Assembly (NCBI GenBank): GCA_030698395.1
Contig: JAUYKW010000027.1
Coordinates: 3,174-67,173 of the forward strand
Source: a bacterium
GTDB lineage: Bacteria > Patescibacteriota > Patescibacteriia > UBA9570
Direction of reading: 5' to 3'
Length of the DNA: 64,000 bases
Below, piece after piece: positions 51,295 through 63,971 of the stretch. Made by a program: the position numbers and the translations under genes. How positions within the stretch are numbered: the first letter of the stretch is position 1; every line of letters begins with the position of its first letter. A model generated the notes under the pieces. It saw only the letters and a list, made by a program, of their open reading frames with translations. It searched no databases and was not told where the DNA came from.

Positions 51295-52290
51295 TCACAA
51301 CTCTCTAATTGCGTGTTCAATCCTACGAGTTGCATCTTCATATGACTCTGATTTATCTACAAAATACAAAGGCTTGCCGAATTTTATTGATACTGAGTGT
51401 CTTTTAGAGAAAATGCTCTTTTTTGAACCATAGATAAATGCTGTTCCTTTTATTCTAACCGGAATAATTGGCACATTCATTAAAGATGCCATTAAACCAG
51501 CCCCTCTCTTAAATTCATTCATTGTATCGGAATGACTAACTCTACCTTCTGGAAACAAAGCCACAGACCAACCTCTGTCTAATAGAGCCCCCGTATAATT
51601 GAAACCAGATTTAATATCTTCATTTTCTTTACGAGGAAAAGGAAATGCATTAAAAAAAAGTTGTATTGCTGGCAGATATTTTCTAAATTCTCCAAAAATA
51701 GAATCCTTTGCAGCTGCATAGGCTAATCTATTTCTTACTTTTATATTCAATGCTGCCGATAAAAAAATACCATCAAATAGACTAATGTGATTAGACATGA
51801 TTATTACCGGATATTTCACGTCCTTAAAATTATCTTGATCTGCAACTTCTAATTTCGTCACTAATCTCATTAAAGGAAAGAAAAAAAAGCTCTGGCCCAC
51901 ATATCTTATTATCCTAGCAAATAGGCTTAATGGCCATTCCTTTATTTTTAATCTTTTTTCAACAGGATTCGCTACGTTAATTAAAGCCAATAAATCAGTA
52001 ACACTTGTTTTTGCTGTAATGTTAACTTCCGGAACTGTTACACCGAACACATCTTCAATTCTAGTAACCAATTCTATTCGTAAAATAGAATCTAACTGCA
52101 AATCACGCACTAATACTGTATCAGATGCAATATCTTTAGCATTAGTATCTGTAATTGCCGCTAGTAATGCAACTAGCTGGGGCAATTGTTCATCTTTCTG
52201 CATGGATACGTTTAATGATTTCACCTTTTTTAACTTTTCTGGTAGCTGATCGAGGAAAATCTTCCTCTTTCCAAACTGACCAGTTTGCAA
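51295..52290 (-). CDS. acyl-carrier-protein domain fused to PlsC-type lysophospholipid acyltransferase
   Basis: N-terminal ~80 aa carry an ACP-like DLQLDSILRIEL (DSL phosphopantetheine site). C-terminal domain carries the HxxxxD acyltransferase motif (NHISLFDG) and PEGR-like FPEGRVS. True start may be the ATG at 52203, which reduces the overlap with the ligase gene to 11 nt. Confidence 0.65.
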   Translation of the reverse strand: MQTGQFGKRKIFLDQLPEKLKKVKSLNVSMQKDEQLPQLVALLAAITDTNAKDIASDTVLVRDLQLDSILRIELVTRIEDVFGVTVPEVNITAKTSVTDLLALINVANPVEKRLKIKEWPLSLFARIIRYVGQSFFFFPLMRLVTKLEVADQDNFKDVKYPVIIMSNHISLFDGIFLSAALNIKVRNRLAYAAAKDSIFGEFRKYLPAIQLFFNAFPFPRKENEDIKSGFNYTGALLDRGWSVALFPEGRVSHSDTMNEFKRGAGLMASLMNVPIIPVRIKGTAFIYGSKKSIFSKRHSVSIKFGKPLYFVDKSESYEDATRRIEHAIREL

Positions 52291-53752
52291 TCTGCTGATA
52301 TGACGCTAACTGCTCATTCGTTCTTTGTACCAATTCCTCTGAGGTAGAATTATTATCTTTCTCAAACAGCAATACAGCATGTATTTCTACTCGTCCAGAT
52401 TCTTTCTCTAAACCAATCACACAACTGTCTTTAATTTCCGATAACTCATTAAGTTTTTGTTCGATATCCTCAGGAAAAACATTTTGCCCCCCTGGACCAA
52501 GAATCATATATCGTTTACGCCCGTTGATATAAATATAACCATCAGAATCTATCTTTCCAAGATCGTCTGTTTTAAACCACCCATCTTCAGTAAATGCTTC
52601 TTTTGTTTTTTCTGTGTTCTTATAATATCCTTGAAAAACACTTGGGCCTTTCACTAAAATTTCACCATCATCTGCAATTTTAACTTCAACACCTGATAAG
52701 ACTTTACCAATAGAACCCCTACGATGTGCCATTAACGTATTCATTGATACTACTGGTGACGTTTCCGTGAGTCCATATCCCTGCAATAAGGTTATCCCTA
52801 ACGCATTCCACTTATCTTCAAGTTTTGGATCTAAAGGTGCGCCACCAGAAGCTACGATACGTAACTTACCACCGAATGATTTGTGCACAGAACTAAATAA
52901 CAACCTTTGTAGTAGTCTAATTTTTATGGTATTAGATATCTTCATCATTTTCTGCATTAATTCTTTTTTCCCATCTTCCTCTGCCTTAGCCTCTATCTTA
53001 GACATTACAATACTTAAAAACTCAGGAACCCCAAGCATCTTTGTAACGTGATGCTCCTTCAAAAGATCACTAATAGCAGTAGGCACGTGAGCATAAACAA
53101 TTTTTGCAGATTTATAGCAAGGCAACAAAAAACCTATTACCTGCTCATAAATATGACTGAGTGGTAAAATAGATAAAAATACATCGGTATCGTCAACAGG
53201 AATTGCTTCAGAAACAGCTATAACATTTGATATTACATTTTTATGACTCAACAACACTCCTTTTGGATCTCCCGTAGTTCCAGAAGTATACATAATGATT
53301 GCAATGTCTTCCTCAGTTGCCGTTACTGGGACAAACTCATTGTCTTTGTATGATTCAATAGTTTGCTGTAAATCTTCGACTTGATAAACTGCCAATTCAT
53401 CAGTAATATCTTCTGTAAATTTATTATTTGAAAAAATTATTTTTGCCTCAGTTTGTTTAGCAATCTTATTAATCATCTCTCCTGTACTTTGGGTATTTAA
53501 AGGAACTAATACTGAACCATTTAATAAACAGCCCCAATATACACATAGCCAATTGGGAGAATTTGGAGCCAATAACAAAACTTTATCTCCTACACCAATG
53601 TCTTGTTCTTTCAAAAATACTGCGGTACTTTTTGCCATCTTGTAAATATCCTGATATGACAGTTCAACATTTCTATAACCAACTTTAATAATGGCTGCTG
53701 TTTTATCTGGGGTTTGTTTTGCAGAATTAATTATGAAATCTGTAAGTATCAT
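52190..53752 (-). CDS. AMP-forming acyl-CoA/acyl-ACP synthetase (fatty-acid ligase)
   Basis: 520 aa. AMP-binding motif YTSGTTGDPKGV and motif II region (GYGLTETS). Confidence 0.8.
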   Translation of the reverse strand: MILTDFIINSAKQTPDKTAAIIKVGYRNVELSYQDIYKMAKSTAVFLKEQDIGVGDKVLLLAPNSPNWLCVYWGCLLNGSVLVPLNTQSTGEMINKIAKQTEAKIIFSNNKFTEDITDELAVYQVEDLQQTIESYKDNEFVPVTATEEDIAIIMYTSGTTGDPKGVLLSHKNVISNVIAVSEAIPVDDTDVFLSILPLSHIYEQVIGFLLPCYKSAKIVYAHVPTAISDLLKEHHVTKMLGVPEFLSIVMSKIEAKAEEDGKKELMQKMMKISNTIKIRLLQRLLFSSVHKSFGGKLRIVASGGAPLDPKLEDKWNALGITLLQGYGLTETSPVVSMNTLMAHRRGSIGKVLSGVEVKIADDGEILVKGPSVFQGYYKNTEKTKEAFTEDGWFKTDDLGKIDSDGYIYINGRKRYMILGPGGQNVFPEDIEQKLNELSEIKDSCVIGLEKESGRVEIHAVLLFEKDNNSTSEELVQRTNEQLASYQQIANWSVWKEEDFPRSATRKVKKGEIIKRIHAER

Positions 53753-53758
53753 AATTAA

Positions 53759-54115
53759 TTAGTCATTTAATAAAAAAACTGCTGATGCTATTGCATAGTC
53801 ACCATCATGACTAATTGATATATCATGCGATAAAATTTCCGCTTCACCTTCATATTTCAAAATAGGATGGCCAGTTTTGCTGTAACGAATTCCTATTTGT
53901 TTCCAATTCCCTGCTTCTAATCCCAGTGCTTTAATTACCGCTTCTTTGGCGGCAAAAACACCTGCCAAATGCTGTGCAGAATTTGATACAGTCAATTCTT
54001 CCACTTGAAATATCTTATCTAGAAAATCTTGTCCCGAATTTTTTTTTGATTTTTCAAATTTCTTTATGTGTACAATGTCACAACCTGTTTTGATTTTCAT
54101 GTATGTATTATGCAC
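53759..54115 (-). CDS. acpS: holo-ACP synthase (4'-phosphopantetheinyl transferase)
   Basis: 118 aa. GCDIVHIKKF (GxDxxE/H) and FAAKEAVIKALG motifs. Confidence 0.8.
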   Translation of the reverse strand: MHNTYMKIKTGCDIVHIKKFEKSKKNSGQDFLDKIFQVEELTVSNSAQHLAGVFAAKEAVIKALGLEAGNWKQIGIRYSKTGHPILKYEGEAEILSHDISISHDGDYAIASAVFLLND

Positions 54116-54181: not shown

Positions 54182-54712
54182 TTATCGTGAACTTACAATC
54201 TCACTTGTATTTTCCGATTCACATGATCTAATTCGTAAAATCCCAGTAGTTTCTTTTTGGATGGTATAGCCTGTAGTTGCTGCTGTCCAAGTTCCAAGAC
54301 CATCAGGACTAATTGGTATGTCTCCAATGTAACCTTGAGTTATAATATCATCACCTCCGGTAGTTAAATCCAAACAAACTGCTTGCGTAGGGTTTGTATC
54401 ACAGAAATCAGTTACAGTTGTAGCTGTTGCTCCACTAGCACAAGAACCAATTAAGTAAACTTCACCTGCAGTCGCGCCATTAACTGCTGAATTGTAATAT
54501 CCGCCATTATCAACCTGATCCACTTTAAGTGCAGACAAAACTTCACTGGCTTGTGCTGCTCTTTTTGAATCTCTAGAATCAGCTAATCTCGATAAAGGAT
54601 CCAAGGCAACAAATAGAATCACAGCCAAAATTGCAATAATCGCCACTACGATTAAAAGCTCGATTAATGTGAAACCTTCATTTTTTTTATTTAATTCTTG
54701 TCGAATGTTCAT
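54182..54712 (-). CDS. type IV pilin (major pilin candidate)
   Basis: 176 aa. Class III signal ...NKKNEG|FTLIELLIVVAIIAILA with Glu at +5. Two Cys near the C-terminus. Confidence 0.75.
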   Translation of the reverse strand: MNIRQELNKKNEGFTLIELLIVVAIIAILAVILFVALDPLSRLADSRDSKRAAQASEVLSALKVDQVDNGGYYNSAVNGATAGEVYLIGSCASGATATTVTDFCDTNPTQAVCLDLTTGGDDIITQGYIGDIPISPDGLGTWTAATTGYTIQKETTGILRIRSCESENTSEIVSSR

Positions 54713-54758
54713 AATATATACATTGAAAACTATTTTTTATTAAAACCAGATTACTTAT

Positions 54759-54787
54759 ATTATATTATATTTAATAACTTACGTCAA
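54759..54787 (-). promoter_or_regulatory. sigma70-like promoter TTGACG-17-TATAAT upstream of the pilin gene
   Basis: On the minus strand, TTGACG (plus 54782-54787) is followed by a 17-nt spacer and TATAAT (plus 54759-54764), about 45 nt upstream of the pilin ATG. It overlaps the pilM stop. Confidence 0.4.
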
Positions 54788-56025
54788 TTTGAAGCATTTT
54801 TAATCACCCAGATAATAGCAGCAATTGACAAGCCACCAACAATAATTACAACTAGCATAACTAATTGCTTTTTTGTTTTTTTATCCACTCCCGAACTAAT
54901 TACTGAAATTTTAGTACCTGATCTTTCTTTTGTCTTAATCTTTTTTTCTTTTAATTCTGATTCACTCAATCTTAAATCTACTGATTGTTTTTGATATTTC
55001 GCATCAGTAGGATACATAGCTAATCCAACTGCTTCCACATACATTGATGCCTGATCCCCTTGCGGTATGCTAATTTCAGGAATCTGCCCTTCGGTTTGTC
55101 TTTGCGCTAAATAATTAGAGAGAAACTCCGTTAAACCTGGCAACTGAGCACTTCCACCTGTTAAGAATAATTCCTGCGGCATATGTTGATACAAACTATA
55201 ATATTTTTGCAGACTACTAGTAATCTTTTCTGCTAATGGTTGGACAATATTGATCATGTCAGGTGACTCCAGGCCGAATGAAATTTTTTGCGCTTCAGCT
55301 GCTTCAAACGATCCACCAATTTTTTGTGCTAATTGTGTGGTCCATACAAATCCACCAGTTAATATCGTTTCACTAATAATTGGCTGGCCTTGATAAAAAA
55401 ATGTTAACACAGTCTTTGTTCCTCCAATATCTGCAACTGCCATAGATGATTGTTGAAACTCAGAATCTCGATCTGCAAGAATTCCTCTCATAATACCTAA
55501 TACTTCTGGTTCTATGGCAAGAACCTCTATGCCAACTTCCTTAAAAAACAGTTGCCAATTTTTCACAATCTGTTTATCTACGCCAAATATAGTATAGTTT
55601 TCTGATCCGTCTGCCAGCACATTCTTTAACCATACAATATGTAAATTTTCATCTTCTATTAAAAATGTTGCTCGAGCTTGGTCACGTAAAACTTCCTCTA
55701 GTTTCTCACCAGTTAAATCCTGACCATCATTCTGAATATTATAATTTAAAGAATATACTAAGGAATCAGGAAAACTCACAACCGCCTTTCTGCTCTCTGC
55801 TGGTTGAGGCGATGCATTATCTAATAAAGATTGAAATATATTATTCAAACCTTCACGATTTTTAATTCTTCCTTGGACAATTACATCTCTAGCTAACTCT
55901 GCTCTAGCATAACTAACCATATTAAAGCTAGATCTAGCTTTACTAAGTTCAACGATTTCGATAGATGTATCAGCTATATCTATACCAAGGTATGATTTCA
56001 TTGTTTTTAGGGATTTAATTGCCAA
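54784..56025 (-). CDS. pilM: type IV pilus assembly protein PilM (actin-like ATPase) with C-terminal basic linker plus TM helix
   Basis: 413 aa. Actin/FtsA-like fold (GIDIADTSIEIVEL, DIGGTKTVL, LTGGSAQLPGL). The last ~40 aa are KKTKKQLVMLVVIIVGGLSIAAIIWV, a PilN-like membrane anchor without a periplasmic domain. Confidence 0.7.
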   Translation of the reverse strand: MAIKSLKTMKSYLGIDIADTSIEIVELSKARSSFNMVSYARAELARDVIVQGRIKNREGLNNIFQSLLDNASPQPAESRKAVVSFPDSLVYSLNYNIQNDGQDLTGEKLEEVLRDQARATFLIEDENLHIVWLKNVLADGSENYTIFGVDKQIVKNWQLFFKEVGIEVLAIEPEVLGIMRGILADRDSEFQQSSMAVADIGGTKTVLTFFYQGQPIISETILTGGFVWTTQLAQKIGGSFEAAEAQKISFGLESPDMINIVQPLAEKITSSLQKYYSLYQHMPQELFLTGGSAQLPGLTEFLSNYLAQRQTEGQIPEISIPQGDQASMYVEAVGLAMYPTDAKYQKQSVDLRLSESELKEKKIKTKERSGTKISVISSGVDKKTKKQLVMLVVIIVGGLSIAAIIWVIKNASN

Positions 56026-56414
56026 CTAGTTAAAGAAACATCTCCACCAGATACTACTGTAACAGCTTCTACTGTTGCATAATAATCACTTATATTTCCA
56101 ATAGAATTGATTGCCCGTTCAGTACCCCCATCAGACGTAACCGTTATTGTACAAGAATTACCACCTATACTCAAGACCTGAGTACCAGCTCCGACTGCCC
56201 AATTTTCATCATAGCGCAATCTGCGTAATACTTCCTCTGTACAACTATCCGCTAATACTATGGCAGATTCTGTTTCACCAGCAGAATAACTTAAGTCCAA
56301 CTCGCCAATTCCTAACAAACTAATTGATAAAGCTATTGTAGTTGTAACAGACGCAATTATAACAATTGCTATTAATGCTGCTGCTCCAGAGTGATCAAAT
56401 AAATATATTTTCAT
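56007..56414 (-). CDS. pilin-like/PilX-like small protein (no canonical E+5)
   Basis: 135 aa. Hydrophobic N-terminus MKIYLFDHSGAAALIAIVIIASV... Lies between pilin-like genes. Confidence 0.4.
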   Translation of the reverse strand: MKIYLFDHSGAAALIAIVIIASVTTTIALSISLLGIGELDLSYSAGETESAIVLADSCTEEVLRRLRYDENWAVGAGTQVLSIGGNSCTITVTSDGGTERAINSIGNISDYYATVEAVTVVSGGDVSLTSWQLNP

Positions 56415-56917
56415 CTTCTTACGGATACTGCAGTTTGATAAGTTTGACTAGTTGCATACTCAGCACTATCCGTACCACTATATTGCAATGTCATTTGAAC
56501 ACGAACATTTTCCACTCGACCATTACCTGTTAAATTTGTAAATTGTAGATTTGTTACACTCACCAGTGTGGGCATCACAATAATTGGTCCGGTAGCTCCT
56601 TCAGTAATTTGTATTTGACCATTATCAGCTGTAAGTTCTATTACTGTTGGGTTCTTTGCCACGTCAGCCATTGATAGTTCTAACACGCCGGGATCTGAAC
56701 TAAAAGTACTTCCTCCTAAATTTACTCCGGATGAACCACGAATTGCATCTGTTATGTACTCCATTGCAAATCTAGCATTAGCGTTTATTTCCTGATGCAC
56801 CGCTGCTTTGGACCTAGCCTGAAACATAGTTAAGGAAAAACTGATAAAAGCTACAACAACAGCGCTAGTAAGGGCTACGTATATCAACAACTCAATTAAA
56901 GTAAAACCTTTTTTCAT
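56411..56917 (-). CDS. minor pilin/pseudopilin
   Basis: 168 aa. MKKG|FTLIELLIYVALTSAVV class III signal. Confidence 0.7.
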   Translation of the reverse strand: MKKGFTLIELLIYVALTSAVVVAFISFSLTMFQARSKAAVHQEINANARFAMEYITDAIRGSSGVNLGGSTFSSDPGVLELSMADVAKNPTVIELTADNGQIQITEGATGPIIVMPTLVSVTNLQFTNLTGNGRVENVRVQMTLQYSGTDSAEYATSQTYQTAVSVRR

Positions 56918-56918
56918 G

Positions 56919-59900
56919 TTAGCGATAATTTATTATTACATCTTCTAAAATTGGCGTAGAAATTCCATCGCCTGTAAATTCTGCACGATACTGCACCCAT
57001 TGATTACCATTTAAAGCTGTAGGAGGTAACATACCATTTTGATCTGTAAAATAAGTTCCTGCACCTGTAGCACCAAACCAAGATGTCCATGTTCCTGGAG
57101 CGCCAGTTACATCTGGTGCAGTGCGCAATTGGAATTGTATTGTACAACTAGGCGAACATGCAGGTAATACCTCTGACCATTCAATCACTTGCAAAGGTGA
57201 AGTGTCCGTCATGTCAAAAGCAGATGAAGTTAGTGTGCCTGAGGTAGTATAGGTGCCAGTGCTCGTACGGGTAAACTTCATGAATAAACCAGCATCACCA
57301 ACAGTCCAACCCTCTGTACTATCTCCTCTTGAAATGTCATTTAAATTCGTCGTAGTTGGAGATGTAAATAACGCCCAATCAATTCCATTATAAACCATTA
57401 ACGTACCTGCATCACCAACGGCCCAGCCATCATTCGTTGCTATCATATCAATACCATTCAAATTGTTAGTAGTTTGTGAAATTCTAGACACCCAACTAAT
57501 ACCATTCCAGTAAATTATCACACCACCATCGCCCATCGCCCACGCATCACTGCTACTAACCATGTAAACCGCATTAAGATTATTTCCAGTTGGAGATGTA
57601 ACTGTACTCCATGCAGAGCCATTCCACTGTACAATTGTTCCTGCAGCGCCAACAGCCCAACAATCCGAACTCGATATACAATCAACGTCATTTAGGATAT
57701 TACCCGTGGGAGATGTTGCCGTAGACCAACTAGTACCATTCCAAGTAGCTATTGTTCCAGCATCACCAACTACATAAGCTACAGAGCTATTTACAGCTTC
57801 TACACCATTTAGACCATTACCGGTTGGCGATGTAACTGTACTCCAAGTACCAGTACTATACTGCACAATCGTACCTAACGCACCTACTGCCCAACCATTA
57901 TTTACATCTATAAATGTAAGATCGTATATATTATTGCTTGTCGGTGAGGTGTCAGACGTCCAGGCAACGCCATCAAAACTAAACAACGTACCAACGTTAC
58001 CTCCGGCATATCCTACAGTAGATGAAATCATATCTACAGCATTTAAGTTTTGAGTTGTTGGATTGTTATAGTTCACCGTAAGTTCTTCCAATACTGAGGT
58101 GAAATTAGCATCGGTTGTTGTGAATGTAACAAAATACTGTAAATACCTACCGTTAGGAGAAATTATTGGTTCCCCGCTTGGATTTGAATAAGCACCAGAG
58201 TATGCAGACCAACTTGCATCTGGTACAGCCACCTCACCAGTACGGGAATCGATTGATAGATTGGTTGCTGGGTTAGTGGTGTCTTCCACCCAAGAAATCC
58301 AATCCCATGTTGCTCCTGCACTGCCACTATCTATAATTGAAGATTCAAATGTACCAGTTAAAAAATAAAGATTACTGTACTGAATAAATGTAGATTGAGC
58401 ACCTGCAGCCCATACATTGGTGCTAGCTACCATATTTACAGTATACATATTTTTTGCGGTGGGAGATGTTACAGTAGCCCAAGCAGATCCATTCCATTGT
58501 AGTAAAGCACCACCTGCACCAACGGCCCAAGCATCAGATGCATTTAGTATAAAAATGTCATACAAAGCACTACCAGTTGGCGAGGTTACAGTAGCCCAAG
58601 CAGATCCATTCCACTGAATAATTACACCATCTGCACCAACGGCCCAGCAATTGTTTGAAACGGAACAATGAACCCCATTGAGGGCGCTACCAGTTGGAGA
58701 AGTTACAGTAGCCCAGGCAGATCCATTCCATTGGATAATTACTCCACCCGCGCCAACCGCCCAGCAATCCGAAGTTGATACACAATGAACCCCATTGAGG
58801 GCGCTACCAGTTGGAGAAGTTACAGTAGCCCAGGCAGATCCATTCCATTGGATAATTACTCCACCCGCGCCAACCGCCCAACCATCGCTACTAGATACCA
58901 TTGAAACGCTACTTAAAAGACTGCCAGTAGGAGATGTTTGAGTAGCCCAGGTACTGCCATTGTAATATATTATTGTACCTGACTGACCAACTGCCCAGCA
59001 GTTAGCTGTATCGGCACAATTAACTCCCTGTAAATTACTAGTTGTCGGTGAAATTACACCAAGCCAATCCACACCATTATATTCATAAATCGTTCCTCTG
59101 TTAGCTACAGCCCAGCCATCGCTGGCATCAATCATATCCAAACTATTTACATCTTCGTTGCCTAATGATGATGTTAAATCAGACCAAACGGAACTATTGT
59201 ATCGTACCAACAAAGGTTGCTTATTTTTACCACCCACTGAATGAACATCAATAGCAGATAACGCTTCAATATCTTTAAGGGTATCTATAGCAACTGCAGG
59301 AGTAACATCATTCCAAGTAGTTCCGTTCCATTCAAGAATTTTTCCGGTTCCTGTTGTTCCGCCAGATATATATCCAGAACTAGCTGAAAGCATGGATACT
59401 CCGTATAAAATTCTGGTTGTAGGACTAGATTGAGTAAACCAAGTAGAGCCATTGTAATAAATAATTTCACCACCAGCTCCAGCTGACCAACAATTAGATG
59501 TATCATAGCAATCAATTCCATTCAACTGCTTTGTAGTTGGTGAGCTAAAAGAACTCCAACTTGTGCCATTCCATTGTAATATTTCGCCTTGCCAGCCAAC
59601 TGCCCAGCCATCTGACGCTGATACAAAATCCACTCCAAAAAGGTTTCTGGAAGTAGGCGAACTAAAACTAGTCCAAATAGCACCGTTCCATTTCAAAATT
59701 GTTCCGCCATCACCCACTATCCAACCATCACTTGCCGAAATCATTTTTATTGCGTTTAAATCGGATGTTGTACCAGAAGTAACAGTAGACCATGTGACTC
59801 CGTTCCAATGTATTATGACTCCACTTACGCCAATGGCCCATATATTATTAGCCGACACTATGTCAATTGATAATAACTCTGTAGACACTCCACTGCTAAC

Positions 59901-60788
59901 ACCGGTCCAACTGGTTCCATTCCACTTCAGAATGGCACCATTATCTCCAACAGCGTAGCCTAAAGAGGTAGATAAAAAATCCAATCCATTCATAGATTCC
60001 TGAGTTATAACATCGCCAGTTGGAGCAAATACACCCCAGTCAACAGATTGACTAATGGTTATGCTTGCATCGGCTCCAATACCATTTATCTGCGTGTCCG
60101 TTAGTGTTCCAGCGCCAAAGTCTGTATCAGATGTATGTGTAGCATTACTGCCACCACCAGGTATCCATTGATCAAGATTTCCTGACGAAACACCAGTTAA
60201 ACTAATTTGTCCAGCCCTTGTGAAGTCTATATTGCCATCACCTGAATCATACATAGTTGCATCAGACCAGATGGATTGTCCAGAACCGCCAGACCAATCC
60301 GTCTGTGTCCATTCATCTGCATCCCAATTAGTTATATAGCCAATATACTCTTCACTACTTGTTTGGCCTACTGTATTTTCCCATGAAACTGTTACCATAA
60401 TTTGCTTGCTATGAATATCCAAAGTATCACCACCTACACCGCAAGTTACAATATCAAAACTTACATTTCTACATACATCAGCAAAAGAAATTGTTCTCGT
60501 AAAATTACCGATAATTTCACTTGTACCTTCACCATCAAATACCCATTCACTCCCAGAAACAGAAACCGAAGATTGATCATATTCTACGCGATTCCAAGAA
60601 TCATCATGAATCGCGCGCACGGCCTCATAGCCTTCTCTTGCTAAAGCAGTTGCTTCTGCTCTCTGCTGTCCACCGATAGTTCCAGCAAAGCTACCTAGAA
60701 TTGTAGAAACCAAAGCGCCAGCTATAAATGCAAAAATTGCTAGAGCTAATAAAATTTCTACAACTGATTGTCCGGAACGATTTTTCAT
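56919..60788 (-). CDS. giant pilin-like protein: prepilin N-terminus plus about 20 beta-propeller blades plus two paralogous ~90-aa modules
   Basis: 1289 aa. N-terminus MKNRSG|QSVVEILLALAIFAFIAGALV is a class III signal with E+5. From about aa 250 there are ~39-aa repeats of the form WAVGxxGxIIxWNGxxWxxVTSPTxxxLNGV (two runs of 14 and 6 blades). Each run is followed by a related module ending ...LEELTVNYN or ...LEDVIINYR. Confidence 0.7.
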   Translation of the reverse strand: MKNRSGQSVVEILLALAIFAFIAGALVSTILGSFAGTIGGQQRAEATALAREGYEAVRAIHDDSWNRVEYDQSSVSVSGSEWVFDGEGTSEIIGNFTRTISFADVCRNVSFDIVTCGVGGDTLDIHSKQIMVTVSWENTVGQTSSEEYIGYITNWDADEWTQTDWSGGSGQSIWSDATMYDSGDGNIDFTRAGQISLTGVSSGNLDQWIPGGGSNATHTSDTDFGAGTLTDTQINGIGADASITISQSVDWGVFAPTGDVITQESMNGLDFLSTSLGYAVGDNGAILKWNGTSWTGVSSGVSTELLSIDIVSANNIWAIGVSGVIIHWNGVTWSTVTSGTTSDLNAIKMISASDGWIVGDGGTILKWNGAIWTSFSSPTSRNLFGVDFVSASDGWAVGWQGEILQWNGTSWSSFSSPTTKQLNGIDCYDTSNCWSAGAGGEIIYYNGSTWFTQSSPTTRILYGVSMLSASSGYISGGTTGTGKILEWNGTTWNDVTPAVAIDTLKDIEALSAIDVHSVGGKNKQPLLVRYNSSVWSDLTSSLGNEDVNSLDMIDASDGWAVANRGTIYEYNGVDWLGVISPTTSNLQGVNCADTANCWAVGQSGTIIYYNGSTWATQTSPTGSLLSSVSMVSSSDGWAVGAGGVIIQWNGSAWATVTSPTGSALNGVHCVSTSDCWAVGAGGVIIQWNGSAWATVTSPTGSALNGVHCSVSNNCWAVGADGVIIQWNGSAWATVTSPTGSALYDIFILNASDAWAVGAGGALLQWNGSAWATVTSPTAKNMYTVNMVASTNVWAAGAQSTFIQYSNLYFLTGTFESSIIDSGSAGATWDWISWVEDTTNPATNLSIDSRTGEVAVPDASWSAYSGAYSNPSGEPIISPNGRYLQYFVTFTTTDANFTSVLEELTVNYNNPTTQNLNAVDMISSTVGYAGGNVGTLFSFDGVAWTSDTSPTSNNIYDLTFIDVNNGWAVGALGTIVQYSTGTWSTVTSPTGNGLNGVEAVNSSVAYVVGDAGTIATWNGTSWSTATSPTGNILNDVDCISSSDCWAVGAAGTIVQWNGSAWSTVTSPTGNNLNAVYMVSSSDAWAMGDGGVIIYWNGISWVSRISQTTNNLNGIDMIATNDGWAVGDAGTLMVYNGIDWALFTSPTTTNLNDISRGDSTEGWTVGDAGLFMKFTRTSTGTYTTSGTLTSSAFDMTDTSPLQVIEWSEVLPACSPSCTIQFQLRTAPDVTGAPGTWTSWFGATGAGTYFTDQNGMLPPTALNGNQWVQYRAEFTGDGISTPILEDVIINYR
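58439..58906. repeat. 117-nt (39-codon) tandem repeats inside the giant pilin gene; the two central copies are near-identical
   Basis: 58673-58789 and 58790-58906 share an identical stretch of about 91 nt (ccccattgagggcgctaccagttggagaagttacagtagcccaggcagatccattccattggataattactccacccgcgccaaccgccca). Copies at about 58556 and 58439 are roughly 80 to 85% identical. They encode ...WAVGAGGVIIQWNGSAWATVTSPTGSALNGVHC... blades. Confidence 0.7.
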
Positions 60789-60789
60789 A

Positions 60790-61242
60790 TTAATAAACTG
60801 CTCCCAAGCTTGTTACTGTTATATAAACTGATTGTACATCTGATGTTATCGTTACAGTTCCTGGATTATCCGGTAAAGCAGATCCTGCAGTAAAATTTAC
60901 TCCTGATAACCCAGAGATTTCAATGTTACCTTTCATTTGAGTTGTTATGTCATATGCTGTATCTCTAGTTGCATAACTAGTCCCCTGGTATAAAGTAAAG
61001 TTTGTTAAAGTAAAATTTACCCCATGTGCCGTACTGTTCTTTTTTCCTTTTGCCCGTTGATGCGCAACGCGAAGTGATTGCACAATTTCTTGTCTGGTTT
61101 GTTCTACTTGAGCTGTGTCCTGACTAGATCCATACAATCCCCCAATTCCAAATATCATTATACTTAAAATAGCAATCACAATTAATAACTCTACGAGTGT
61201 AAAGCCACGTTTATTGCTGTGTAATATTGCCAGTAATTTCAT
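60790..61242 (-). CDS. minor pilin/pseudopilin (GspH/PilV-like)
   Basis: 150 aa. ...SNKRG|FTLVELLIVIAILSIMIF class III signal. 32-nt overlap with the pilC 3' end. Confidence 0.7.
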   Translation of the reverse strand: MKLLAILHSNKRGFTLVELLIVIAILSIMIFGIGGLYGSSQDTAQVEQTRQEIVQSLRVAHQRAKGKKNSTAHGVNFTLTNFTLYQGTSYATRDTAYDITTQMKGNIEISGLSGVNFTAGSALPDNPGTVTITSDVQSVYITVTSLGAVY

Positions 61243-62323
61243 AAATTGGAGTAATGATAGATATTGCCAATGCGGCCACTACTAATCCTATAAAAATTAG
61301 CATAACAGGTTCGAGTGCTGTTGATAAAGATTTTGTAGTATTATCCAATTCATCATCAAAAAAGTCTGCAAGATAATTGAGATTTTCTTCTATCCTACCG
61401 GATTTCTCTCCTACACTCACTAATCTACTAACAATTTTTGGAAAAATATCCTCATGAAATGCTATATGTTCTGAGACCGATGCACCTCGTTTTACATGTT
61501 TTGTAATGTCTGTAATTGCTTGCTTAAAATAATAATTACTTACAGTATTATGAGTAATCTTTAAAGCATTATCAATTGTTAAACCACTTTTTAATAACAA
61601 ACTTAATGTTCTACAAAATTGAATAAGATTTGTATATTTCACAACTCCCTTAACGATGGGTATCCGTAGCACTATCCAATGAACAACTGGTTGGGAAAAT
61701 TTTTGCCTAATTACCCAAGCCAAAAAACTTCCACCAACTACAACAACTAGAAAAACTTCAATTCCATATTGATCAAAAAAGTTTGATAACCATAAAAGAA
61801 TTCTCGTACTTAAAGGTAACTCTATGCGCAATCCAGAAAAGAAACCGCTTAATTGAGGTAAAACAAAAAGTGCGAAAGAAAATCCTAATATTCCGGCAGC
61901 CCCTAAAACGGTTATTGGATAGATTAAAGCTCCCTTTATTTTATCTCTTAACTCCTTATCTTTTTTTAACTGACTAGCAATATAGGTAAAATTTTGTTCT
62001 AGTGTTCCAGACTCTTCGCCAATTTTAACCATATTTACATATAGTTCTGAAAATACTTTTGGAAATTTTGCTAAAGCATCTGATAATTTCTGTCCAGTTT
62101 CTATTGTTTTCAAAACTTTTATTAGGACTCGACGCATTTTTCCTGAAGATTGATCTACAGTAATTCTAATAGTTTCAACAATCGGAATACCAGAAGCAAG
62201 CATTATTGCACAATATTTTGCAAACAACATCTTTTGCTCTATATTGATTTTACCAATAGTTACTTCATTTTGAAATAAATTTTTTTCAACTAGCGTATCT
62301 TGTTTATTTTTTTTTATAGCCAT
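61211..62323 (-). CDS. pilC: type IV pilus/T2SS platform protein PilC (GspF family)
   Basis: 370 aa. Duplicated GspF cytoplasmic domains and 3 TM segments. Confidence 0.85.
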   Translation of the reverse strand: MAIKKNKQDTLVEKNLFQNEVTIGKINIEQKMLFAKYCAIMLASGIPIVETIRITVDQSSGKMRRVLIKVLKTIETGQKLSDALAKFPKVFSELYVNMVKIGEESGTLEQNFTYIASQLKKDKELRDKIKGALIYPITVLGAAGILGFSFALFVLPQLSGFFSGLRIELPLSTRILLWLSNFFDQYGIEVFLVVVVGGSFLAWVIRQKFSQPVVHWIVLRIPIVKGVVKYTNLIQFCRTLSLLLKSGLTIDNALKITHNTVSNYYFKQAITDITKHVKRGASVSEHIAFHEDIFPKIVSRLVSVGEKSGRIEENLNYLADFFDDELDNTTKSLSTALEPVMLIFIGLVVAALAISIITPIYEITGNITQQ

Positions 62324-62324
62324 A

Positions 62325-63971
62325 TTATTGGGTTACGCGTAATACTTCTTTTAATGTTGTAGATCCATTTAAAGCTTTTTGCACGCCGTCATCCAACATT
62401 GTGCTCATACCATTACGACGAGCTGCATTCATTATTTTTGATGAGTCTGCTCTCTCCACTACCAAACTTCTTATCTCATCAGTCATTTCTAAAATTTCAA
62501 ATACGCCGACTCTACCCCGATAGCCAGTATTCACACAATTATTACACCCAGCTCCATAAAATGCAGACATAGTTGCTGGATCTTCAATTCCTGCTTTCTT
62601 TAAAGTTTCTAATAACTTAGGTTGATGATTAATGAAGTCAATCGTCTCTTGTAATGGTGGTCCTGAACGAATACAAGAAGAACAAATCTTCCGCAATAAA
62701 CGTTGTGCAATAATGATCCGCACTGTTGAAGCAACTAAAAATGGCTCTACTCCCATATCTATCAATCTTGGTATGGCAGTTGCTGCATCATTTGTATGTA
62801 ATGTAGAGAGTACGAGGTGTCCAGTTAAAGCCGAATTAACAGCAATGCCAGCTGTCTCCTCATCTCTTATTTCACCAACCATCATGATGTCTGGATCTTG
62901 TCGTAAAAGAGATCTTAACCCATCAGCGAAAGTAAGATTTGTTTTTGTGTTGACTTGCACTTGGGTTACACCTTCAATATCATATTCAACTGGATCTTCA
63001 ACTGTTGAAATGTTAACTTCCCGCCGATTTAAAATTTTTAAAATTGCATATAATGATGTAGTTTTTCCACATCCTGTTGGTCCGGTAGATAAAATCATGC
63101 CATGTGGATTTGCAATTGCATCTCGTACGATCTCCATATGTTCCTCACCCATGCCTAAATTTTCCAATGTATATGATCTAGCAACATCACTTAAAATACG
63201 CATAACAGTTTTTTCACCGGATGTGCTAGGCAAGATTGAAACTCTAATATCTATCGTTGTATCACCGTCAACTTCAAATTGTAATTTACCATCTTGAGCA
63301 GATCTATGCTCATCGGTTCTTAATTTTGCTAATATTTTTATCCTAGTGGTCAACAGCTCTAATACATTCTTATTCATGCGGACAATATCATGTAAAATAC
63401 CATCAACTCTTAATCTAATAACTACTTCATCATCAAATGGTTCTACGTGAATATCAGATGCTTTATTATGATAAGCATATGAAATAATTTCATCTACGAT
63501 CTCTACAATCAGATCTTCATTTTCCAGTAACGCATCGGGATTTGCTAAAACGCTTTTGATGCTTTCTCCAATACTACTTTCATAAGATCCGGTAGCCATC
63601 TCAATATCCACTTTGGAAGCGAAGAACAAATCCGCATGTAAACCAGTTTTCTTTTCTACCATACGAACAATCTCCATATCGGTAGGGTCGGCCATAGCAA
63701 TTTTTATACTAGCATCTGTCATTTCATAAGCAATTACCTGTCGTTTTTTTGCTACAAATTCCGGTATTACAGACAATGCCTCTTTAGAAATAGTATGCTG
63801 TGATAAGTTAACAAATCTATAACCATAAAATTCAGCAATTAACTTACCTAACTGTGCATCTGTCAGCCACCCTTTGTTAGTTATGAATTCCCCAATATCT
63901 AAGTCTGAATTTTTTTGAACAGCTAAAGTTATCTCCGCGTACTGTACATCTGTAATGAATCCAGGCTCAAC
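62325..63971 (-). CDS. pilB: type IV pilus assembly ATPase PilB (GspE family)
   Basis: Walker A GPTGCGKTT, Asp box, His box, and a CxxC...CxxC tetracysteine (CSSC...CNNC). The track ORF starts at an internal TTG (63776). The same frame is open up to the TAG at 63972-63974, and the extra 65 aa (LSLEFITDVQYAEITLAVQKNSDLDIGEFITNKGWLTDAQLGKLIAEFYGYRFVNLSQ...) are a typical GspE N-terminal domain. Start is probably the TTG at 63969-63971, giving about 549 aa. Confidence 0.8.
   Translation of the reverse strand, partial: VEPGFITDVQYAEITLAVQKNSDLDIGEFITNKGWLTDAQLGKLIAEFYGYRFVNLSQHTISKEALSVIPEFVAKKRQVIAYEMTDASIKIAMADPTDMEIVRMVEKKTGLHADLFFASKVDIEMATGSYESSIGESIKSVLANPDALLENEDLIVEIVDEIISYAYHNKASDIHVEPFDDEVVIRLRVDGILHDIVRMNKNVLELLTTRIKILAKLRTDEHRSAQDGKLQFEVDGDTTIDIRVSILPSTSGEKTVMRILSDVARSYTLENLGMGEEHMEIVRDAIANPHGMILSTGPTGCGKTTSLYAILKILNRREVNISTVEDPVEYDIEGVTQVQVNTKTNLTFADGLRSLLRQDPDIMMVGEIRDEETAGIAVNSALTGHLVLSTLHTNDAATAIPRLIDMGVEPFLVASTVRIIIAQRLLRKICSSCIRSGPPLQETIDFINHQPKLLETLKKAGIEDPATMSAFYGAGCNNCVNTGYRGRVGVFEILEMTDEIRSLVVERADSSKIMNAARRNGMSTMLDDGVQKALNGSTTLKEVLRVTQ

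Follow-up and report, generated by a model that had tools for sequence, protein, structure and literature searches.

A modular minor pilin in a type IV pilus operon of a Patescibacteria bacterium, a probable tip adhesin with Ycf48-type propellers predicted to be nested in split jelly rolls

Patescibacteria are thought to depend on attachment to host cells, and almost all of them have type IV pili, which are often essential. In Nanosynbacter lyticus TM7x, one of the Saccharibacteria, normal host binding and competitive fitness require PilX2, a minor pilin with a seven-bladed RCC1-type propeller; another minor pilin, PilX1, has a jelly roll not represented in domain databases (PMC11623550). Modular type IV pilins, in which a binding module is grafted onto a small pilin, include PilB (vWA) and PilC (ConA-like lectin) of Streptococcus sanguinis and are widespread, with 264 architectures and examples from the Candidate Phyla Radiation (CPR) among them (PMC8179133, PMC9934059). 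Here we describe a 1289-aa protein encoded in a 64-kb stretch (64,000 nucleotides) of contig JAUYKW010000027.1 from a Patescibacteria (CPR) bacterium, referred to below as the window. The protein is probably a modular minor type IV pilin whose ~120-kDa ectodomain serves as a tip adhesin; its identity as a pilin is close to certain.

Judged by the published descriptions and not by sequence alignment, the protein is like PilX1 and PilX2 in being a Patescibacterial minor pilin that combines a lollipop pilin module with a large extra domain and a non-canonical prepilin signal. PilX2, however, bears one RCC1-type propeller appended at its C-terminus, whereas the window protein has three predicted Ycf48/PSII_BNR-type propellers nested in two jelly rolls. 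With an N-terminal pilin module and at least one module not specific to type IV pilus biology, it has the composition of a modular pilin as defined by Raynaud et al. (2021); in pilins of the S. sanguinis type, however, the module follows the pilin via a short linker, whereas the far larger addition found here (~1130 aa) appears to have arisen by recursive insertion into a jelly-roll loop. Modular minor pilins, a propeller at the pilus tip and Patescibacterial type IV pilus adhesins are already known, and some relatives of the protein are annotated as prepilin-type. The original prediction, made from the window alone, called pilins of this size with propeller ectodomains unusual; this was an overstatement, given a large Patescibacteria-wide family (below), the modular pilins described and the published host-binding minor pilin of TM7x with its propeller. 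The literature that we searched holds no description of a GspI-class pilin with a split jelly roll and a single insertion hot-spot, of recursive nesting or of a triple Ycf48-type propeller payload.

The open reading frame, which starts with ATG on the minus strand and encodes a protein beginning MKNRSGQSVVEILLALAIFAFIAGALV, lies at the coordinates first proposed for it. Its parts are as follows (window positions; residues in brackets; JR, jelly roll; an arrow marks the predicted cleavage site):

56919..60788, minus: whole coding sequence of the 1289-aa modular minor pilin, including the stop codon
60771..60788, minus: leader peptide MKNRSG (1-6), ending in Gly(-1), with a predicted prepilin-peptidase site G↓Q, from the sequence and the family conservation of G(-1) and E(+5)
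60315..60770, minus: mature pilin module (7-158), a hydrophobic alpha1 with Glu+5 and a small beta-sheet domain ending YIGYITNW
60180..60314, minus: JR-B (outer jelly roll), N-half (159-203), bearing the family signature WTQTDWSGGSGQ...GQISL; joined directly to the C-half in P0124 and A3, both minimal forms
60021..60179, minus: N-half of the inner jelly roll JR-A (204-256; …THTSDTDFGAGTLTDTQINGIGADASITISQ…), placed by splice alignment to P0043
59148..59990, minus: predicted propeller 1, blades 1-7 (267-547)
58371..59147, minus: predicted propeller 2, blades 8-14 (548-806), including the near-identical blades 10-12
58044..58370, minus: C-half of JR-A, module A (807-915), ending LEELTVNYN
57264..58043, minus: predicted propeller 3, blades 15-21 (916-1175)
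56922..57263, minus: C-half of JR-B, module B (1176-1289), ending LEDVIINYR, the conserved C-terminus of the whole family

As originally proposed, the N-terminus has the features of a class III (prepilin) signal: a leader that is short and basic and closes with Gly(-1), a Glu at +5 and ~20 hydrophobic residues (MKNRSG↓QSVVEILLALAIFAFIAGALV), so that the leader is followed by Q-S-V-V-E (MKNRSG↓QSVVE) and the hydrophobic helix. Among the top 120 homologues, all those with a pilin module show (K/R/S)G↓(Q/F)S(L/I)(L/I/V)E. The motif is present in 116 of 136 further cluster representatives, the remaining ones seemingly being truncated at the N-terminus; in these 116, residue +5 is Glu in 111, Asp in four and Gly in one, residue +1 is Gln in 57 and Phe in 33, and a quarter of the family has canonical variants (G↓FSLIE). 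Relatives are named 'prepilin-type N-terminal cleavage/methylation domain-containing protein' by NCBI and, in some cases, 'pseudopilin PulG' by JGI. In the model of the homologue P0124, which is 47% identical in this part, a helix (residues 10-64) followed by a sheet forms the lollipop fold (predicted local distance difference test, pLDDT, 86.7), and the closest structural match of the modelled pilin fold is GspI. Cys106 and Cys116 of the pilin module are conserved. That the N-terminus is instead an ordinary Sec signal, on a generic secreted repeat protein that came to lie in a pilus operon by chance, was considered and rejected. Although propeller-only homologues of other phyla do carry ordinary Sec signals, the conserved Gly(-1) and Glu(+5), the canonical variants, the pilin fold of the homologue model and the conserved cassette synteny already contradict this explanation, which we regard as scarcely tenable. 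The Sec signals of these homologues rather mark the propeller as a mobile extracellular module and the pilin anchor as specific to the family.

The genes around the 1289-aa gene are those of a type IV pilus assembly system, all on one strand in the order PilB-PilC-pilin-1289-aa gene-pilin-pilin-PilM-major pilin:

61211..63776, minus: assembly machinery block, PilB and PilC
62325-63776, minus: PilB ATPase (T2SSE, E 6e-126)
61211-62323, minus: PilC platform protein (T2SSF, E 2.4e-56)
60790..61242, minus: first minor pilin in the cassette, of 150 aa, with G↓FTLVE; best weak matches GspH/ComGD
56411..56917, minus: third minor pilin in the cassette, of 168 aa, with G↓FTLIE
56007..56414, minus: fourth small pilin-like protein, 135 aa, …HSG↓AAALIAIVII…, without Glu+5
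54182..56025, minus: block of PilM and major pilin
54784-56025, minus: PilM-like protein with a C-terminal transmembrane segment (PilM_2, E 3.9e-23)
54182-54712, minus: likely major pilin, 176 aa, canonical, G↓FTLIELLIV

PilB, PilC, PilM and four other prepilin-type genes thus adjoin the 1289-aa gene, which is tightly packed, with a gap of 1 nt to the prepilin-type gene on either side. The gene is second in a four-gene minor-pilin cassette of H-I-J-K order and its product has Glu+5, as is the case for GspI/XcpV/EpsI of the type II secretion system (T2SS), PilV of the type IVa pilus (T4aP) and ComGE of the Com pilus. By position and fold, therefore, the pilin module is of the GspI/PilV/ComGE class, although by sequence model it is no member of those families, whose proteins have 100-140 aa and no extra domains. 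In the hidden Markov models (HMMs) curated for them (TIGR01707, TIGR02523 and NF041013), it scores 18.8 bits for ComGE (cut-off 49) and 13.4 bits for gspI (44.35), and relatives reach 22.7 bits for PilV (52.2); the weak matches of the pilin domain and of bare-pilin relatives, to ComGE, GspI, XpsI and PilV, all fall well short of the curated cut-offs. When all Protein Data Bank (PDB) sequences were searched with a profile built from 24 minimal members of the family, the matches were confined to the N-terminal pilin part and marginal (E ~0.3), and no solved relative emerged. In 19 fetched loci, the fourth gene is kept behind the third pilin gene. Its 135-aa product, which had no Pfam or NCBIfam match, resembles GspK/PilX/ComGG in its position and its missing Glu+5, from which we infer its class, and is far smaller than GspK.

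The cassette is conserved in distant Patescibacteria: four small pilin genes stand between PilC and PilM, and the homologue always comes second among them. Of 83 fetched loci, 76 have PilC upstream. The occupant of this slot varies in size, from 162 aa (P0130) to 1064 aa (P0087, with Laminin_G_3), 1301 aa (P0001) and 1353 aa (P0014, from Uhrbacteria). An alternative is that the pilin-like N-terminus acts as a membrane anchor only and that the protein is a surface adhesin outside the filament, as are archaeal binding proteins with class III signals. The ~120-kDa ectodomain is indeed much wider than a pilus shaft, and the authors of the TM7x study noted a non-canonical signal for the large minor pilins (PMC11623550), but the homologue holds a fixed position within the minor-pilin cassette, and in some genomes a bare 162-aa pilin of the same family takes its place. 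Because the slot is fixed and can be filled by the pilin alone, the pilin module is expected to have a core structural role in priming, and we consider a mere anchor improbable.

The modular minor pilin that we favour is built on nested jelly rolls. Modules A and B, at the ends of the two blade runs, had been recognised as paralogous, which holds (27% identity, E 2e-4), but each spans ~110 aa and not ~90 aa, and the two do not mark a duplicated propeller-plus-module unit, as had been supposed; they are the C-halves of split jelly rolls, one predicted to be nested in the other. In minimal forms of ~300-330 aa (25 of the 136 representatives), module B is joined directly to the post-pilin segment with the signature WxQTDWSGG...GxxxL, and JR-B is contiguous in minimal relatives of ~318 aa. 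With phmmer, long forms match P0124 residues ~5-200 at their N-terminus and ~200-318 at their extreme C-terminus, and because the two stretches are separate, the variable part of the family is an insertion at one loop. Likewise, the spliced segments 204-256 and 807-915 align without a break to residues 205-357 of P0043, a 730-aa relative (E 2e-25), and to residues 1557-1715 of P0002 (E 1e-30). The order along the protein thus appears to be pilin (7-158), JR-B N-half (159-203), JR-A N-half (204-256), propellers 1 and 2 (267-806), JR-A C-half (807-915), propeller 3 (916-1175) and JR-B C-half (1176-1289). By alignment and modelling, the jelly roll after the pilin is a putative insertion scaffold whose loop after the second strand carries ~970 residues, and the insert is predicted to consist of a second jelly roll split by two Ycf48-type seven-bladed propellers, followed by a third propeller. 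A Pfam scan of the isolated jelly-roll modules returned no family at E up to 10.

The inserted repeats are 39 aa long, with a strict period when anchored on the W-N-G motif. About 20 blades had been proposed, in runs of about 14 and about 6: the first run does have 14 (residues 267-806), and the second has seven (916-1175), giving 21. In homologues, the blade HMM often misses the divergent closing blade and then yields 6 or 13 in place of 7 or 14. The proposed kinship with Ycf48/PSII_BNR propellers was borne out, as Pfam PSII_BNR (PF14870) scores 63.4 bits (E 2.7e-17; gathering cut-off 27 bits) and solved Ycf48 structures in the PDB match by sequence (E 6.8e-7); besides PSII_BNR, a Pfam scan over the whole length of the protein gave N_methyl and nothing else. 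Residues 156-1289 were modelled in AlphaFold2 from an alignment with 39 homologues. The model has a mean pLDDT of 88.4 and four-stranded blades throughout, and the proteins that match it best in Foldseek each contain two or three seven-bladed propellers, namely GH74 xyloglucanases, Aip1, BT4663 and DDB1 (E 1e-15 to 1e-21). These matches, the divergence of the last blade of each seven (blades 7, 14 and 21; 5-31% identity to the others), the dip in model confidence at blades 6-7 and the runs of seven in homologues all point to the 21 blades forming three closed seven-bladed propellers, as modelled.

With Ycf48/HCF136 and with BNR/Asp-box propellers such as GH74, the protein shares the blade family (PF14870) and the seven-bladed fold. 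Ycf48, however, is a photosystem II assembly factor with a single propeller of ~330 aa, whereas the window protein has three, predicted to be extracellular, in a non-photosynthetic organism, with Asp-boxes shortened to W-N-G-x-x-W; for the Ycf48 equivalog NF010237 it scores 66.9 bits against a cut-off of 326. As had been stated, the window protein contains no Asp-box, although its closest homologues P0001 and P0003 have degenerate ones (T-x-N/D-G-G-x-T-W) at the position of W-N-G-x-x-W. The structural matches raise the alternative that the tandem propellers are a GH74-like glycanase which the pilus delivers to host wall polysaccharide: Foldseek ranks 2, 3 and 5-7 are GH74 xyloglucanases, which have two seven-bladed Asp-box propellers (E ~1e-17). 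Identity to GH74 is only 12-14%, however, and the sequence profiles match the non-enzymatic PSII_BNR/Ycf48 group, so that a glycanase seems very improbable. Blades 10-12 are mutually 74-85% identical in protein and 70-86% in DNA, and Tandem Repeats Finder reports a 117-bp repeat at 58462-58951 (residues ~613-776, blades 10-13; 2.7-4.2 copies, 78-90% match); together, these indicate that blades within propeller 2 were recently duplicated or underwent gene conversion, as read from sequence. The copy number of the 117-bp repeat is open to mis-assembly in short-read data.

With P0124 as query, 1.84 billion representatives were searched exhaustively; 221 clusters matched at E <= 1e-30, and the number was 699 at E <= 1e-10, so that the family comprises at least 221 clusters. 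The best 150 have lengths between 258 and 2414 aa. Only 13 proteins came from a word-indexed search in which the N-terminal 251 aa served as query, and the exhaustive search was needed to size the family. An exact look-up of the window protein in public assemblies gave no match, and its nearest relative is 47% identical to it. At least 144 GTDB species genomes encode the signature together with the pilin domain, and the lineages with the signature include Falkow-, Magasanik-, Uhr-, Ryan-, Berkel-, Dojka-, Vogel-, Sung-, Buchanan-, Komeili-, Campbell- and Nomurabacteria, Microgenomates and Paceibacteria. The expected homologues with variable blade number exist, in 7-, 14- and 21-blade and larger architectures: JR-7-JR (~730 aa), 7-JR-7-JR (~1000 aa), 14-JR-7-JR (~1300 aa, the type of the window protein), 7-JR-7-JR-7-JR (~1400 aa) and larger. 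Propeller blades are found in only ~16 of 111 long representatives; other payloads in the same slot are Laminin_G_3 (ConA-like lectin), H_lectin, MAM, DUF4082 or domains without a family.

Because lectin- and adhesion-type payloads (ConA-like lectin, H-lectin and MAM) fill the same slot, we favour a role as tip adhesin, the function suggested by the original prediction and still the best supported, with PilX2 of TM7x as precedent; by analogy, this function is likely. Deletion of the propeller-bearing PilX2 halves host binding in TM7x (PMC11623550). Following established pilin biology, the preprotein would be inserted through Sec and prepilin peptidase (PilD) would remove the six-residue leader after Gly6. 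The hydrophobic alpha1 with Glu+5 would then dock with the three other minor pilins (H-, J- and K-like) to form a priming complex on PilC/PilM, and PilB-driven polymerisation of the major pilin beneath this complex would carry it outward to the pilus tip. Displayed there, the ~120-kDa ectodomain may bind a glycan or protein ligand on the host-cell surface and so act as an adhesin or host-recognition element. The paired cysteines (C-x5-C in the blades, 106/116 and 1211/1215) and a content of 44% Gly/Ala/Ser/Thr fit an extracellular pilin-like protein. In being a large propeller protein tied to a minor-pilin tip complex and implicated in adhesion, the window protein is like PilY1/PilC of T4aP; PilY1, however, is a non-pilin with another, modified propeller family, whereas here the propellers are covalently part of a minor pilin, and the Pfam scan of the full protein gave no PilY1/PilC C-terminal propeller.

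Several points weigh against a tip-adhesive minor pilin. Residue +1 is Gln and not the canonical Phe, and on the full-length protein Pfam N_methyl (type IV pilin families PF07963 and TIGR02532) scores 18.0 bits, below the gathering cut-off of 21.2 bits; the isolated 159-aa domain scores 21.6 bits and relatives 22.3-23.4 bits. The large minor pilins PilX1 and PilX2 of TM7x likewise go unrecognised as PilD substrates by SignalP (PMC11623550), and a non-canonical +1 residue, which is Gln in about half of the present family, may be why signal predictors miss such subunits. The pilin fold attributed to the window protein is carried over from the model of P0124, and the packing of the split jelly-roll halves would follow from alignment to contiguous forms. 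Within the 64-kb window, a motif scan (G[GAM]GDxK) found no prepilin peptidase, so that prepilin processing rests on motif and context, and a scan for a second PilT-type Walker A found no PilT. Tip location and ligand binding are both what we infer, and we know of no ligand for this propeller type in such a setting.

The missing PilT retraction ATPase bears also on the alternative that the cassette builds a short pseudopilus or a competence-type (Com/T2SS-like) filament, whose payload would capture DNA or another substrate for uptake and have no host ligand. It would agree with such a filament, as would the best, though weak, HMM matches of the minor pilins (ComGD/ComGE/GspH/GspI), but PilT may sit elsewhere in the genome, the payloads in the same slot of relatives are of lectin or adhesion type, and TM7x mutants in T4P-2 pilins, including the propeller-bearing pilX2, kept wild-type competence (PMC11623550). 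We consider an uptake filament unlikely.

Taken as host-binding tip subunits, the members of this family are concrete candidates for host recognition that can be traced by sequence: because the anchor of pilin and split jelly roll is conserved, the family can be found in any genome, and its hypervariable payload can be compared with host range. The window protein is an extreme case of recursive domain insertion. We put forward tentatively, as something a little short of probable, that the jelly roll after the pilin is a dedicated payload slot, in which one loop (~residues 198-205 of the 318-aa form) takes whole binding domains recursively, one jelly roll inside another and propellers inside the inner one. 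Patescibacteria would thereby diversify pilus tip and host range by swapping or multiplying cassettes in one core minor pilin, and the bare pilin (~160 aa), the pilin with a jelly roll (~320 aa) and the 730-, 1000-, 1300-, 1400- and 2100-aa forms would represent one series.

Other features of the locus and its relatives were noted. The PilM homologue (54784-56025) ends in a transmembrane segment …LVMLVVIIVGGLSIAAIIWVI…, as if joined to a PilN-like anchor. Related loci have a much longer PilM gene (652 aa at L002 10127-12085 and 883 aa at L003 11099-13750), and the L002 protein carries SH3-type domains. One or two response-regulator genes precede the pilus operon in the related loci L001, L002 and L003, with a histidine kinase as well in L002 and L003, which suggests that the operon is under two-component control; the window stops just upstream of PilB. 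The G+C content is ~34%, and PilC of the nearest relatives is only ~50% identical. Locally, G+C rises to 0.40-0.42 at 56000-60000, against 0.32-0.36 in the rest of the window; because the rise coincides with the Gly/Ala/Ser/Thr/Trp-rich repeat gene, it probably reflects the composition of that gene and is no evidence of transfer. An Rfam scan of the 64 kb gave no family at gathering score and so called neither a tRNA nor an rRNA nor a riboswitch. Almost every gene of the window lies on the minus strand, and the GC skew is strongly negative throughout. Directly downstream of the pilus operon (51295-54115, minus strand) are three genes, for a 118-aa protein, a 520-aa AMP-binding enzyme with a YTSGTTGDPKGV motif and, overlapping, a protein of 331 aa that has both a carrier-like segment, …LQLDSILRIELV…, and the H(x)4D motif of an acyltransferase (NHISLFDG), the motifs of the last two having been read by eye; together, the three may form a unit for acyl activation and transfer.

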